A stretch of 64,000 nt of DNA from an uncultured Calditrichaceae bacterium (GTDB lineage: Bacteria; Calditrichota; Calditrichia; RBG-13-44-9): assembly GCA_964624795.1 (NCBI GenBank), contig CAZUZS010000016.1, positions 6,855 to 70,854 on the forward strand, given 5' to 3'. The notes under the pieces were generated by a model that saw nothing but the letters and a program-made list of their open reading frames with translations, was not told where the DNA came from and did not search any database. Below, piece by piece: positions 24,157 through 47,574 of the stretch (the stretch's first letter is position 1; every line of letters begins with the position of its first letter). A program made the translations under genes and the position numbers.

Positions 24157-25641
24157 ATGAAAAGCATCAAGTTATTTGCGATTCTGTTTCTTCTAATCAT
24201 CTTCATATCCTTTCCGGTTCAAAATGCGGGCGGGCAGGATTACGTATTAATTGGCTGGAACGACCTGGGAATGCACTGCTCCAATAAGAATTTCTCTAAA
24301 ATTGCGGTGCTGCCTCCCTACAACAACATCTATGCGCAATTAATAATGAAAATGCCGGGGCAGCTTCCGCAAGTTGTTACTACCGGATACGAGATATCGT
24401 ATTCAATTCCATATAATACGTATTCTGTTGGAAAAACCGATTTCTGGACCTATGCCCAGCAGCTTTTTGGTCTGGCCAATCCCTTGCCGGACAATATTGG
24501 CTTAACCGGGAAAGGGCTGACCGGAACTCTGGATATTAATGGCAATTACTTCCGGGCAGAGGGCATTCCGTTGACTCCCTACCCCGATACCAGCCTGACC
24601 CACGAAGAGCCGTTCCAGCTCATTCATCTGGAAGCGCGTGAGACCGGCGGAAGCACAATTCTGGCAACCACCGATGCCGTTATACCAGTAAGCAATGAAA
24701 TGGGCTGTGTCCAGTCGGGCTGCCACTCATCCGAGCAGGATATCTTGAACCAACATGAAAATGTTGCCGGATTTAATATCAACGGCCCAAATCTTTGCGC
24801 GAGCTGCCATGCAGACAATGCGCTTGGAACAACCGGAACGAGCGAAGCCGGAATATTTTCTTATCGGATGCACCGCCAACATGCGGAATTGAATCTGCCC
24901 AACACAATCGAAACATGCTACATGTGTCATCCAGGCCCGACAACACAGTGCCTTAGGGGTGTTATGCGAACCGGGATTTCAAATCCCCTAATTTGCCAGG
25001 ATTGCCACGGAAGCCTGAGCCAGGTTGCGCAATCGATCTCTGCCGGACGTGAACCCTGGCTGGAGGAGCCCCGTTGTGGCGATGCCGCCTGCCACGGGAG
25101 CAATTTTGCCGAAGAGCCCGGCCTTCTCTTCCGGCAATCGCAGGGCCACGGCGCATTATTTTGCTCTGCCTGCCACGGAAGTCCGCACGCCATCTTCCCC
25201 ACCCGAGAAGCGAACGACAATCTTCAGAACATAAGATTGCAAGGTTATGCCGGAATCCTGCGGGATTGTATGGTGTGCCACACTTCGGTGCCTTCCTCGC
25301 CGGGGCCTCATGGTGTAATGTTTACAAATATCACTGCAAGCAACAATGCTCTGCCGGGCGATTTCCGCCTGGCCCAAAACTACCCCAATCCTTTTAATCC
25401 GGTGACAAATATTTCCTTTGAAATATCGCAAACCGCTTTCGTAACCATGACGATTTACGACGTTTTGGGAAAAAGGGTGGAAACCATCGTGAACCAGAAA
25501 ATGAAACCGGGCAGATACGAAGTCAAATGGAATGCCGGGGAATCCACGAGCGGTTTGTATTTTTACAGATTGATGGTGGTTCCGGAGAATCCATCAATTG
25601 CTGTCTTTGAAATGATGAAGAAAATGGTTCTTATGAAGTAA
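24157..25641 (+). CDS. Multiheme c-type cytochrome with T9SS C-terminal sorting domain
   Basis: Signal peptide; 5 CxxCH and 2 CX4CH motifs; C-terminal QNYPNPFNPVTNISF...IYDVLGKRV...GLYFYRL...KKMVLMK. Confidence 0.88.
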   Translation: MKSIKLFAILFLLIIFISFPVQNAGGQDYVLIGWNDLGMHCSNKNFSKIAVLPPYNNIYAQLIMKMPGQLPQVVTTGYEISYSIPYNTYSVGKTDFWTYAQQLFGLANPLPDNIGLTGKGLTGTLDINGNYFRAEGIPLTPYPDTSLTHEEPFQLIHLEARETGGSTILATTDAVIPVSNEMGCVQSGCHSSEQDILNQHENVAGFNINGPNLCASCHADNALGTTGTSEAGIFSYRMHRQHAELNLPNTIETCYMCHPGPTTQCLRGVMRTGISNPLICQDCHGSLSQVAQSISAGREPWLEEPRCGDAACHGSNFAEEPGLLFRQSQGHGALFCSACHGSPHAIFPTREANDNLQNIRLQGYAGILRDCMVCHTSVPSSPGPHGVMFTNITASNNALPGDFRLAQNYPNPFNPVTNISFEISQTAFVTMTIYDVLGKRVETIVNQKMKPGRYEVKWNAGESTSGLYFYRLMVVPENPSIAVFEMMKKMVLMK

Positions 25642-43811: not shown

Positions 43812-44614
43812 TGCCTCACCCCTATTACAGAGAGCAGAATTTTGGTTAGGAGGAAATCCAATATCAGGATGCCTATTGAGTTAGTCACCACCGTTTTAGT
43901 TGTGGATTGCCCCAACTCCTCTGCCCCGCCATGAGTTGTATACCCTAAATAGGCGCTATTTATGCCAATGAAAAGGCCATAGAAAATGGGCTTAATAATG
44001 CCCACCAACAAATCCCCAACAAACAAGACATCACGGGCAGCCAACCAGAAAAATTTCGGGTCCACCCCTTGCCACAAAACAACAGCAAACCAGCCGGCGA
44101 TAATTCCCATCACATCGGCAATAATTGTTAAAGGCGACATCACCAGTAGTGAAGCAAAAACACGAGGGACAATCAGACGTTTGATTGGATCGGTGCCGAA
44201 AGCTCGCAATGCATCAATTTGTTCGGTAAGCACCATATTTCCGATTTCCGAAGAAATCCGGGCACCGGTTCTGCCAGCCAGTATAAGCCCGACAACGATA
44301 GGGCCAATTTCCCGGATGATGGCCACTGAGATAATGCTGCCCATGGCAGTTTTAGCGCCGAACGGGGCCAACTCGGTTGCCCATTCCAGGGCTAGCGCCA
44401 TGCTCACAAATACTGAAGAAAAGATAACGAGGGGCAGGGCTTGATTTCCCAAAACATAAATTTGCTTGAAGGTCTCGCCGGGATATTTGAAAATATAATG
44501 AGAATTCAGAATGGATTTTGAAAAGAAATTAATCCAATTATAAAAGCCGAGGCCCCTCCGGAAGAGAAAGCTCTTCCGATATTTCAGGGTGATTTCTTTT
44601 GCAAACTTGGCCAT
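43808..44614 (-). CDS. mlaE: MlaE-type ABC permease
   Basis: REIGP, AGRTG..ISSEIG.M..TEQIDAL, PRV and GGAEELGQSTT..VV motifs. Confidence 0.9.
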   Translation of the reverse strand: MAKFAKEITLKYRKSFLFRRGLGFYNWINFFSKSILNSHYIFKYPGETFKQIYVLGNQALPLVIFSSVFVSMALALEWATELAPFGAKTAMGSIISVAIIREIGPIVVGLILAGRTGARISSEIGNMVLTEQIDALRAFGTDPIKRLIVPRVFASLLVMSPLTIIADVMGIIAGWFAVVLWQGVDPKFFWLAARDVLFVGDLLVGIIKPIFYGLFIGINSAYLGYTTHGGAEELGQSTTKTVVTNSIGILILDFLLTKILLSVIGVRH

Positions 44615-44856
44615 ATCAGCTAAAATCCCCGGATAATTTAGATTTTGCCATCTTTTGTTTCAGTTCATCAAATATTGCCGAACTCCGAAAAGCCCCTTGA
44701 CAAGCGACGCACCTGAATAATTAATGACCCGCGGGGCAAGCTATTCGCTGGATGGCCATCGGAAAATGTCCGCAAACGACAAATATTTGAGCCGGCAAAA
44801 ACAAGAAATTGTTGCCCTACTTTGGGCCGCTTATCGGTCAGAGCAAATTCTCATCT

Positions 44857-45375
44857 TTATTGTTTCTTTCCCAACCAGGGCACATTTGCATAAATTGGAA
44901 TTCCCTTCGAGATCCACTGGTAATATGTCAGAATAGCTAACATCTCCTTGCTGTCTGGAGCCATAGGCTTGCCTTTCAGGGCACCCTTGAGACATGCATT
45001 GGTCTGCATTACCAGATCCACCGTCCCATTCGCTCTCTTTTTAAATTTCGGAAATACCGCCGCTACTCCTACCAGCGGAAGTGCCTGTTCATCCATTCCG
45101 GCGTTTTTATGGCAGGTGCTACAATTCATATCATTTCCCACGTATTCTTTCGCGTACTCCTGGGTATTTTGGACAATATTGTAGCCCATCATCACCATAT
45201 CTTTGATTTCCGCGGGTGCATCCTGCGGCTTTGGTGGACTAAATTTTAGCGTGCTTTCTGTTGCTTGATCCTGTGCTTTCCCGCCTGAAAAAAGGAATAA
45301 AGAAGATAACAGTATTCCCATTATGAGTATGACTCTCGCCGAAAAAGGATTAAAAAACGATAGCAGCTTTTTCAT
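44857..45375 (-). CDS. Monoheme c-type cytochrome resembling the N-terminal (heme 1) domain of TsdA
   Basis: Signal peptide; YVGNDMNCSTCH; downstream Cys in QTNACLKGALKG; DSKEMLAILTYYQWISKG; ends after PWLG. Confidence 0.75.
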   Translation of the reverse strand: MKKLLSFFNPFSARVILIMGILLSSLFLFSGGKAQDQATESTLKFSPPKPQDAPAEIKDMVMMGYNIVQNTQEYAKEYVGNDMNCSTCHKNAGMDEQALPLVGVAAVFPKFKKRANGTVDLVMQTNACLKGALKGKPMAPDSKEMLAILTYYQWISKGIPIYANVPWLGKKQ

Positions 45376-45540
45376 GTTGCCTCCTTAGTGATTTGGTTGG
45401 TTCTAAACCTGTAAATCGTTTGTTACCAAAAACAATCGGATTTTCTCAGATTGCACTTAGTGTATGTTAAAAGTGGTTTTACATCCTTCCGCCATTTTTG
45501 CTCGCTCGATGCACGGTATTCAAAAAAAGGGCAATTTTTG

Positions 45541-46086
45541 TCAGTCCGTCATAAGGGCATAGCCCTTTAACTGGAATGTGGGCAATACAACTTGAGCCGA
45601 AAGCGCCACTGTTATATCGGCATTTACCCAATTTTCCTGGTAATTGAAATCGGCAAGCGACTGCCCGCAGACAAAAAGCTGAACTCCGGCCTTTTTCAAC
45701 TGACTGATAATATTCGTATTGGGATTATCCTTGCCGGTTTTTTCTTTGTAAATATCATTATTCAGAACAATTGAAGTGGCATCGGAATGGATTATAACTA
45801 CCAGCTTCATCTGGGCCGGCTGTACTCCGGCCGTTGCGAATACATTGATAAATCTTGCTACATGCCAGAGTGCCGCATTAATGCCATCTGAGTTTTCTGT
45901 CGATTTCTTTACATCAAAAATCACCCTGTATTCAAGATCTTTATCGGGCTGGATTGCTGCTTCAGGCAATGGATGCGCCTTTCCGTAATCCTTAATTACC
46001 GGGTGCACCCATTCCTGGGATGATGAATTACTTGCGCCAGCCGAAAGAAGCAAAACCACTATGAATAAAAGCCACGGATTTCTCAT
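45541..46086 (-). CDS. Periplasmic DsrE/DsrF-like family protein
   Basis: Signal peptide; VIFDV, LVVIIHS and AGVQLFVCGQS with the conserved Cys. Start at MRNPW behind GGAGG (track start 46146). Confidence 0.8.
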   Translation of the reverse strand: MRNPWLLFIVVLLLSAGASNSSSQEWVHPVIKDYGKAHPLPEAAIQPDKDLEYRVIFDVKKSTENSDGINAALWHVARFINVFATAGVQPAQMKLVVIIHSDATSIVLNNDIYKEKTGKDNPNTNIISQLKKAGVQLFVCGQSLADFNYQENWVNADITVALSAQVVLPTFQLKGYALMTD

Positions 46087-46190
46087 AAAAAAGCCTCCTC
46101 CCAATATTGTTTTGCGGGCGGGCAAATTGCGCCACATATAACCCATTCCAGGAGAAATATTGTTGGCAGCAATTACCCGGTCCGGCTTAT

Positions 46191-46688
46191 TTATTTGGTT
46201 TTTTCCTGCGAAGCATACTCCCGCAAGTATTCCAGTATCGCCCTCGCCTGCTCTTCCGATATTCCCAGGCTGGGCATGGGAATGTGATACTGAGAAATCA
46301 TTTTTTTGACATTCTCATCTTTTTGCTCCATTTCCGAAGTGTTTATTATCATGTTCATGATAAACTCCGGAGTTCTCTGGTTCACCACGTCGCCCAGCGG
46401 TGGCCCTACCACTTTGTTGTTCATGCTGTGGCAGGAAGTGCAGGTGCTGTTGAACACGCGTTTCCCTTCTGCTGCGAGCTTGGGATCGATCGGCCCCAAT
46501 TTCAGTTCCTTAACCGGGCCGAATCCCTTGTCCTCGCTTTGCGCACTATCTTTTTGTGGATCCTGAGCTTTCTTTTGGATCGTCTTGCTGGTGTTTTCTG
46601 TGGCAGCCTTTTGATCCTGGTCTGCCTGGCCGAAAACAGTTGCAGAAAACAATCCAATGAGTATGACTACAACAAATGAATATTTCAT
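46191..46688 (-). CDS. Class I monoheme cytochrome c
   Basis: Signal peptide; CTSCH; VGPPL; probable Met ligand in YHIPMP. Confidence 0.88.
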   Translation of the reverse strand: MKYSFVVVILIGLFSATVFGQADQDQKAATENTSKTIQKKAQDPQKDSAQSEDKGFGPVKELKLGPIDPKLAAEGKRVFNSTCTSCHSMNNKVVGPPLGDVVNQRTPEFIMNMIINTSEMEQKDENVKKMISQYHIPMPSLGISEEQARAILEYLREYASQEKTK

Positions 46689-46803
46689 GCTAACCTCCTT
46701 TAAAAATTGTGTTATTAAATTAGAAATTTATTAATTTACCCTTCATCTTTTGCACTACAAACGAAACGCCAATGCCCGAACTACTCCACCGGTTGATTAT
46801 CCC

Positions 46804-47574
46804 TCACTGCGCTACGACCAACTGGTTGTTCACACTTATAGCATCAGTTCCGAATTGCACAAGGTCTGCAGCGTGTCCTCTGGCAAACTCCGAAGTGACC
46901 ACACCTTCCAGAATAACTCTCCCATTGTCCACAATAATATGAATGGGCGGGCTGGTGTTATCTGCATAGTTCTCGAATGCCGGGTCGTTGTAGATCAGGC
47001 GTGCCGCCTGTGCCCGGATCTGGTCGTCGGTGCTGGAAATTGGAAGAACCGTGATGTCGTTGATCACCTTTTTCACTCCGGCAGCTTTTGCCGCCTCCTG
47101 CCCAAATTCCGGTTTGTGCCAGGGAACATAGACCCAGCCTTTCAACGTGACATTTCCCGAATCGGCCTCCACCACAACCCAATCGAAGATGCTGTAAAAA
47201 ATATGTTTTTGAAATTCCTTTATAACGTTATCAGCTACCTGTTGGTTTGTGGCGTTCGGATTCTTAACCACCAAATTATCCACAATCTTATACGATTCCT
47301 CGACCTGGTGGGCATCTTTCTCTGCTTGCTGCTTTTGTTCCAGGGTACCAACAGTACCGTTGAGGGTGATTGTGTTATTGGAAACCGTTACTTGCACATT
47401 GTCATTTTCGAGTATGTGCTGCATCCTTAGTTTGTGTTCGAGAACGATTTGTATTGCTTTGTTTGTTGATTGCTCGTTCTCTTGCGCCGACAACCCGGAT
47501 GGGTATGAGAACAGCCCCAAACCAATTGCTGCCAGAAATAGCGCAAATACGCCGTTCCGAATTTTGCTGGTCAT
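46804..47574 (-). CDS. Periplasmic BON-domain protein (three BON repeats), copy 1
   Basis: Signal peptide; three V.V..G.VTL.G.V repeats. Confidence 0.85.
   Translation of the reverse strand: MTSKIRNGVFALFLAAIGLGLFSYPSGLSAQENEQSTNKAIQIVLEHKLRMQHILENDNVQVTVSNNTITLNGTVGTLEQKQQAEKDAHQVEESYKIVDNLVVKNPNATNQQVADNVIKEFQKHIFYSIFDWVVVEADSGNVTLKGWVYVPWHKPEFGQEAAKAAGVKKVINDITVLPISSTDDQIRAQAARLIYNDPAFENYADNTSPPIHIIVDNGRVILEGVVTSEFARGHAADLVQFGTDAISVNNQLVVAQ

Follow-up and report, generated by a model that had tools for sequence, protein, structure and literature searches.

An exported DsrE-like protein family associated with thiosulfate/tetrathionate enzymes in nine phyla, and a reduced single-haem version of the association in a Calditrichaceae bacterium

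Two routes are known that lead from thiosulfate to tetrathionate, one by way of TsdA and the other by way of DoxDA. To our knowledge, the fate of tetrathionate in neutrophilic bacteria and the proteins that help TsdA or DoxDA are poorly known. Here, we analyze a stretch of 64,000 nucleotides (hereafter the window) from an uncultured Calditrichaceae bacterium (assembly GCA_964624795.1, contig CAZUZS010000016.1, positions 6,855 to 70,854), in which three consecutive minus-strand genes encode, in order of transcription, a class-I cytochrome c, a DsrE-like protein and a single-haem protein related to TsdA. A reading of these letters alone (the original prediction) had taken the three genes for a split Sox/Tsd-like system in which the separate monohaem cytochrome replaces the missing haem 2 domain of TsdA and the DsrE-like protein supplies or accepts sulfur. 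The conserved gene neighborhoods that we describe provide strong evidence, by association, for a function of the DsrE-like family in periplasmic thiosulfate/tetrathionate chemistry; support for what the reduced trio of the window does in particular is only moderate.

Results

Three genes for predicted exported proteins

The three open reading frames (ORFs) are present as predicted at 44857-46688, each with a domain match and an AGGAGG-type ribosome-binding site 5-7 nt ahead of its ATG (Table 1). The likely start of the DsrE-like gene is the ATG at 46086, behind GGAGGAGG, and the resulting 181-residue protein agrees with public gene call P0061. With this start, 104 nt separate the cytochrome c and DsrE-like genes and 165 nt separate the DsrE-like and TsdA-like genes, so that of the gaps of ~45 and 165 bp noted originally, the second stands and the first is replaced by a longer one. 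All three proteins begin with a hydrophobic segment, and their export is predicted from these segments alone. Because flanking genes over ~18 kb share the minus strand, the co-orientation of the trio carries little weight. A consensus scan, performing at chance level for both promoters and terminators, predicted no terminator between the three genes, and the weak terminator-like hairpin that it placed 3' of the TsdA-like gene is no more than a pattern match, as many such sites being expected from shuffled sequence. No Rfam family matched positions 44400-47000, and neither soxYZ nor soxB lies near the trio. The locus occurs in no RNA run and was recovered only in low-coverage metagenome contigs from salt marsh and marine sediment.

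Table 1. Features of the cytochrome c, DsrE-like and TsdA-like genes in the window.
Feature	Position	Strand	Basis
Class-I monohaem cytochrome c, Rhodothermus marinus type, 165 aa, predicted exported	46191..46688	-	PF00034 43.8 bits; PDB 3cp5; AGGAGG site
CTSCH motif of cytochrome c	46428-46442	-	only CxxCH in protein
Candidate Met ligand codon of cytochrome c	46275-46277	-	Met aligned in distal region
DsrE-fold protein, 181 aa, predicted exported	45541..46086 (ORF to 46146)	-	PF02635 43.7 bits; AF2 model; gene call P0061
Cys140, single cysteine of DsrE-like protein	45667-45669	-	kept in 79/80 relatives
Single-haem protein, 172 aa, corresponding to N-terminal haem 1 catalytic domain of TsdA	44857..45375	-	PF21342 44.1 bits; 4wq7
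Haem-attachment motif C85-S-T-C88-H89	45109..45123	-	translation; aligns with C49xxC52H53 of AvTsdA
Active-site stretch Q124-T-N-A-C128-L-K-G131-A132	44980..45006	-	alignment with AvTsdA and 24 relatives
Weak terminator-like hairpin 3' of TsdA-like gene	44727..44741	-	consensus scan, pattern match only

An exported DsrE-fold protein with one conserved cysteine

The DsrE-like protein matches PF02635 well above threshold (43.7 bits; cut-off 22.7), and an AlphaFold2 (AF2) model built from 18 homologues has a predicted local distance difference test score (pLDDT) of 88. The best Foldseek matches of this model in the Protein Data Bank (PDB) are MTH1491 (1l1s), SSO 3mc3 and ST0148 (2pd2), with template-modeling (TM) scores of 0.75-0.89 on the target; YchN, DsrEFH and TusBCD (including 1jx7 and 2hy5) also match. 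The family assignment and the conserved cysteine agree with the original prediction, and the one relative of 80 in which Cys140 has no equivalent is a truncated ORF. In the model, Cys140 falls at the end of strand 136-140, ahead of helix 141-146, and is a candidate counterpart of the active-site Cys78 of DsrE/TusD. No DsrF or DsrH (TusC, TusB) partner genes of the kind that would form a cytoplasmic DsrEFH/TusBCD heterohexamer lie beside the DsrE-like gene. An N-terminal export signal is predicted in 18 of 18 aligned family members, and only this exported subfamily has the conserved extension of ~30 residues (WxYPxIKDYG...PLPxAAxQPD) ahead of the DsrE fold. In a tree of the family, the window protein belongs to a clade whose members mostly adjoin canonical TsdA.

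The DsrE-like family neighbors two unrelated thiosulfate/tetrathionate enzymes

We retrieved 70 loci with a DsrE-like profile from contigs representing one genome per species and scanned all of their ORFs with purpose-built hidden Markov models (HMMs). A TsdA gene lies beside the DsrE-like gene in 28 of these loci, 20 of which also contain a gene for a SBP_bac_11 binding protein. In 10 loci, all from metagenome-assembled genomes (MAGs) of Pseudomonadota, the adjacent enzyme is DoxDA, a membrane-bound thiosulfate:quinone oxidoreductase (TQO), with the order DsrE-like, SBP_bac_11, DoxDA; these DoxDA proteins combine PF04173 with PF07680 and match the NCBIfam model for TQO DoxD (NF041179). Thus, TsdA or DoxDA is next to the DsrE-like family in 38 of 70 genomes, with the enzyme gene either 0-148 nt from the DsrE-like gene or separated from it only by the SBP_bac_11 gene, which is present in 32 loci. 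The phyla number nine (Bacteroidota, Ignavibacteriota, Kryptoniota, Calditrichota, Balneolota, Thermodesulfobacteriota, Campylobacterota, Gemmatimonadota and Pseudomonadota), and metagenome contigs supplied eight more DsrE-like/TsdA pairs. The Sbp/CysP (sulfate/thiosulfate) and ModA (molybdate) binders are distant relatives of the binding protein, which scores below all of their cut-offs.

The pairing of DsrE-like and TsdA genes is far beyond chance. Because two unrelated enzymes that catalyze the same reaction adjoin the same accessory genes, we tie the DsrE-like family to thiosulfate/tetrathionate chemistry. The predicted functional link between the DsrE-like protein and a TsdA-type haem domain is borne out in this sense, as the pair is conserved over nine phyla. 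A literature search of incomplete coverage returned no description of an association between a DsrE-like protein, this binding protein and TsdA or DoxDA. The association is not universal, and ~30 loci have other contexts. In Salinisphaera, for example, the DsrE-like gene stands behind genes for DsbD, a TlpA-like protein and DsbG, with genes for a persulfide dioxygenase and an SQR-like protein nearby, a context compatible with sulfur metabolism that involves a reactive thiol in the periplasm.

Several related loci have further features of the DsrE-like neighborhood. In L007 and L010, a very divergent 142-residue monohaem protein resembling the N-terminal domain of TsdA (L007:4969-5397 and L010:4974-5402; motif C..GALQGKP, with Arg92 kept) is encoded upstream of the canonical DsrE-TsdA pair, close to an additional DsrE-like gene. 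In L008 (5983-8119), the DsrE-like gene is followed by a gene for an exported HExxH protein of 517 residues.

A TsdA truncated to its haem 1 domain and maintained by selection

The 172-residue protein scores 44.1 bits against the SoxA/TsdA cytochrome c domain PF21342 (gathering cut-off 27) and can be aligned at E = 5.5e-13 to Allochromatium vinosum TsdA (AvTsdA; 4wq7), residues 22-133. His89 and Cys128 align with His53 and the axial haem ligand Cys96, respectively, so that His/Cys ligation is predicted and the Cys-ligated TsdA-like haem domain of the original prediction is upheld at the level of sequence. The hydrophobic N-terminal segment is long enough for an uncleaved membrane anchor, more clearly so in the orthologues from loci L001 and L038, and may be either a signal peptide or such an anchor. 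Most homologues are dihaem TsdAs of ~280 residues. By contrast, the window protein has one CxxCH motif and stops at the interdomain linker (..PWLGKKQ*), and downstream of its stop codon we found no remnant of a haem 2 domain, the shared linker alone giving a match. In a tree of N-terminal domains, the window protein, and the 177-residue proteins of L001/L002 and of the Calditrichia MAG L038 form a clade (Shimodaira-Hasegawa-like approximate likelihood-ratio support 98) nested among dihaem TsdAs, and all of its members end at the linker. The window gene therefore derives from a dihaem TsdA. In all three lineages of this clade (window, L001/L002 and L038), the single-haem gene adjoins the DsrE-like gene.

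The reduced size and lost catalytic residues of the protein could be read as signs of a decaying, truncated tsdA, a pseudogene or an assembly artefact. We consider this reading highly improbable and rejected it, principally on the low ratio of non-synonymous to synonymous substitution rates (dN/dS) and the three intact orthologues. Between L001 and L038, the gene differs at 45 synonymous and 16 non-synonymous positions, and the resulting dN/dS of 0.076 indicates maintenance by purifying selection. Moreover, the orthologues in L001/L002 and L038 are intact and share the same end position, independent metagenome contigs reproduce the window sequence (L081, 99%), and the missing second domain has left no trace downstream.

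Synonymous divergence (dS) between L001 and L038 varies seven-fold among adjacent genes, with values of 0.52 for the TsdA-like, 0.07 for the DsrE-like and 0.20 for the cytochrome c gene, which hints at recombination within the cluster.

The active site of the reduced protein is remodeled. Canonical neighboring enzymes carry the stretch RTNxCFxRSMNGK, which includes Arg92, Cys96, Arg99 and Ser100 in AvTsdA numbering, whereas the window clade has QTNxC..GALKGK. Of the thiosulfate-pocket residues Arg82, Arg92, Arg99 and Ser100, only the equivalent of Arg82 (Arg114) survives; together with the ligand cysteine, Lys134 and Lys136, it is invariant in the clade. In a survey of active-site patterns among the best 150 representatives from 1.84 billion clusters, RRCRS occurred in 80, and RQCGA only in the window's own cluster. 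Likewise, when metagenomes were scanned for further members of the monohaem QTNxC..GAL clade, the only hits came from the window's own organism (L081, 99%). The window's reduced version of the gene set, with a single haem and no binding protein, is derived and rare.

Canonical TsdA genes at related loci gave two additional observations. First, in two Joint Genome Institute (JGI) metagenome contigs (L099:3405 and L088:817), otherwise full-length dihaem TsdA genes directly downstream of a DsrE-like gene carry an in-frame TGA at the codon for Cys96 (LVMRTND*FERSMNG). Read-through products would comprise 281 and 283 residues; a hairpin with compensatory changes begins ~18 nt after the TGA, and the orthologue in L052 has cysteine. 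These enzymes are candidates for selenocysteine-ligated haem proteins, of which our literature search found no description for TsdA. Second, canonical TsdA genes are regularly followed by genes for two multi-pass membrane proteins (~454 and 520 residues) that end in cytochrome c domains (L005, L007, L010, L070, L078 and L079); in Desulfobacterota and bacteria of the Fibrobacterota-Chlorobiota-Bacteroidota (FCB) group, these proteins may accept electrons from TsdA at the membrane.

The adjacent cytochrome c

The first protein of the trio is similar over its full length to R. marinus cytochrome c (PDB 3cp5; E = 7.6e-27, residues 41-160 on chain positions 7-122) and, with its CxxCH motif and candidate distal methionine ligand, fits that monohaem class. 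We detected no specific kinship with the haem 2 domain of TsdA, as the CxxCH region alone matches. The window, L001 and L038 form one syntenic lineage (BON, BON, ..., DsrE, TsdA-N, MlaEFD), and a metagenome scan added only the window's organism (L081) to the clade, so that the cytochrome c association rests on one lineage. Conservation of neighborhood, the check named with the original prediction, sustains the DsrE-like/TsdA pair in nine phyla and leaves the cytochrome c confined to a single syntenic group. In L001 and L038, 278 nt separate the second of two cytochrome c copies from the DsrE gene. By position only, the adjacent cytochrome c is the nearest candidate for an external electron partner of the single-haem TsdA domain. 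The proposal that this separate monohaem protein replaces haem 2 is plausible but weakly supported, as the cytochrome c accompanies the pair in one lineage only and follows cytochrome-porin genes there.

These cytochrome-porin genes (L001:1151-2488, L001:3209-4540, L038:1783 and L038:3836) belong to a family of ~445-residue proteins with at least 8000 relatives, no Pfam domain, a signal peptide and an invariant CxxCH near the N-terminus. A porin-like barrel of 16-18 strands gives them a fused architecture like that of Cyc2, and each gene is followed by one for a Rhodothermus-type cytochrome c. The window's 64 kb contain no cytochrome-porin gene of this type.

Elsewhere in the window, positions 24157-25641 encode a multihaem cytochrome c with a C-terminal sorting domain of the type IX secretion system (PF18962), which suggests surface electron transfer and placement in the FCB group.

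Discussion

We propose, with a probability of roughly 0.5, that the window's DsrE-like and TsdA-like proteins are the reduced descendant of a conserved periplasmic set and act as a sulfur-redox module with a shifted substrate. The conserved set comprises an exported one-cysteine DsrE-like protein, usually an oxyanion-binding protein resembling CysP/ModA, and a thiosulfate/tetrathionate enzyme, either dihaem TsdA or DoxDA. In the reduced module, a sulfur oxyanion or a sulfane species would have an S-S bond made or broken at the Cys-ligated haem, and the reactive product would be bound by Cys140 of the DsrE-like protein, in the form of a Cys-S-thiosulfonate or a persulfide, and so carried or removed. 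With haem 2, the normal electron exit, gone, the single haem would have to exchange electrons directly with a separate carrier, for which the adjacent soluble cytochrome c is the nearest candidate, and the direction may be oxidative or reductive. Replacement of Arg92, Arg99 and Ser100 by Gln, Gly and Ala, with Arg114, Lys134 and Lys136 kept, suggests that the substrate is probably no longer two free thiosulfates; judging from the alignment, it has probably shifted to something bulkier or different, possibly carrier-bound sulfur.

Several observations weigh against this proposal. The pocket has changed at three positions (R92Q at Gln124, R99G at Gly131 and S100A at Ala132) around a retained ligand cysteine, and with Arg92, Arg99 and Ser100 gone, an activity like that of TsdA is not a given. 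The window lineage lacks the binding-protein gene. In the AF2 model, Cys140 sits at a strand-helix junction with no flexible arm, and direct contact between it and the buried haem-ligand cysteine does not seem obviously possible. Relatives of the cytochrome c occur near the DsrE-like/TsdA-N pair only in the window, L001/L002 and L038 among the 70 scanned loci, and L001 and L038 each have two copies, every one of which follows its own cytochrome-porin gene. Gaps of 104 and 165 nt make separate transcription possible. The contexts of the nearest relatives suggest a plain electron-transfer role: a sister clade of the TsdA-like protein (257-262 residues, without Arg92; L075-L078) has its genes either between nuoG and nuoH of nuo operons, where genes for a porin-like protein and a dihaem cytochrome also occur, or after a gene for a Rieske/cytochrome b fusion with a SoxA/TsdA domain of its own, and the nearest relative of the DsrE-like protein of the window (L004, 66% identity) is encoded directly upstream of Rieske and cytochrome b/c genes.

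In the main rival explanation, the cut-down TsdA domain is no longer sulfur-active and serves the respiratory chain as a haem of low potential, for electron transfer or for sensing. The cytochrome c would then be a general periplasmic carrier, delivering electrons to a caa3/cbb3 oxidase or receiving them from a cytochrome-porin, and the genes would be mere neighbors. Loss of Arg92, Arg99 and Ser100, the nuo and Rieske/cytochrome b operons of the sister clade, the setting of L004, the placement of the L001 and L038 cytochrome c genes after cytochrome-porins and the long intergenic gaps all speak for it. Against it stand the invariance of the ligand cysteine and of the basic pocket (Arg114, Lys134 and Lys136) within the clade, the DsrE-like partner that has stayed adjacent in all three lineages, and the strong ancestral pairing with bona fide TsdA. 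We regard this explanation as a serious but somewhat unlikely one.

A second rival invokes conjugation as in SoxAX/SoxYZ. Here, the Cys-ligated haem would oxidatively couple thiosulfate (or sulfide) to Cys140 with the cytochrome c in the role of SoxX, the three proteins together forming a minimal module for entry into periplasmic sulfur oxidation. TsdA and SoxA form one family (PF21342), the carrier gene is always adjacent, and Gly and Ala in place of Arg99 and Ser100 would, from the alignment, open the pocket. A monohaem His/Cys subunit combined with a monohaem His/Met subunit also resembles the monohaem types of SoxAX. Nevertheless, the SoxA model (TIGR04484) gives 37.2 bits against a cut-off of 110 and the SoxX model (TIGR04485) 18.7 against 61, no SoxB or other downstream enzyme is encoded nearby, and the modeled Cys140 is not on a swinging arm. 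In addition, canonical relatives keep the full two-thiosulfate site, which points to an ancestral link through free tetrathionate. We therefore consider this mechanism improbable. For the split Sox/Tsd-like system as originally conceived, the Tsd-type link holds, and the Sox part is only an analogy, given the SoxA and SoxX scores far below their cut-offs and the lack of SoxYZ or SoxB nearby.

A bolder extension of our proposal would make the exported DsrE-like protein the missing periplasmic sulfur carrier of the pathway with tetrathionate as intermediate, trapping tetrathionate from TsdA or DoxDA as a Cys-S-thiosulfonate. The window lineage would then have arrived at a three-protein machine like SoxAX/SoxYZ, with the single haem acting on carrier-bound sulfur and passing electrons to the free cytochrome c. 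We offer this extension as speculation that is unlikely to hold in full.

More broadly, the occurrence of the same DsrE-like cysteine protein and oxyanion-binding protein beside two unrelated enzymes in nine phyla is a lead to accessory factors, and the partnership suggests that bacterial thiosulfate/tetrathionate chemistry has a helper still to be recognized. Maribacter thermophilus HT7-2 (L029), with the arrangement SBP-DsrE-TsdA, provides a culturable host of the gene set. The window itself is a natural experiment, in which TsdA has been cut to its catalytic haem domain and its pocket remodeled while the carrier remains paired with it. Such a reduced TsdA can reveal the function of the minimal unit and the way in which electrons exit haem 1 when haem 2 is absent.

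The TsdA of A. vinosum (4WQ7) is periplasmic and shares the homologous haem 1 domain, with conserved CxxCH and axial cysteine, whereas the window protein has one haem, lacks the C-terminal electron-exit domain and has Gln, Gly and Ala for Arg92, Arg99 and Ser100. TsdB is a dihaem protein that takes electrons from haem 2. The concept of TsdB and of fused TsdBA, a separate c-type cytochrome encoded beside the catalytic unit and accepting its electrons, applies to the window as well, but the neighbor there is a monohaem protein of R. marinus type with a single CxxCH, which would dock on the haem 1 domain itself. Like SoxAX with SoxYZ, the trio combines a Cys-ligated haem of the SoxA family with a monohaem His/Met partner and a protein that has a single reactive cysteine, and all components are periplasmic (by prediction here). 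It differs in that the carrier has a DsrE rather than a SoxYZ fold, the SoxA and SoxX scores fall short and no SoxB or SoxCD genes are nearby.

For the DsrE-like family, the nearest precedents are proteins that handle the product of TQO and TsdA or that accompany thiosulfate oxidation. In the sox operon of Methylovirgula thiovorans HY1, a periplasmic DsrE-like gene is mentioned and uncharacterised (PMC9371685); it, too, stands by periplasmic thiosulfate-oxidation genes and encodes an exported protein, a possible member of the subfamily described here. Cytoplasmic DsrE3A of Metallosphaera cuprina reacts with tetrathionate to form a Cys-S-thiosulfonate (PMC4175335), the same type of DsrE-family cysteine chemistry that we propose. 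The DsrE3A/TusA relay is, however, cytoplasmic and Hdr-like-linked, whereas the present family is exported, carries an extra N-terminal segment and lies beside TsdA or DoxDA. Finally, the sulfur-induced TQO operon of Acidithiobacillus ferrooxidans (AFE_0042-0046) encodes an exported rhodanese-like protein (P21), DoxDA and a periplasmic binding protein (PMC2754497). Its architecture is the same as that of the DoxDA loci described here, with the rhodanese-like accessory protein of that operon replaced by a protein of DsrE fold.

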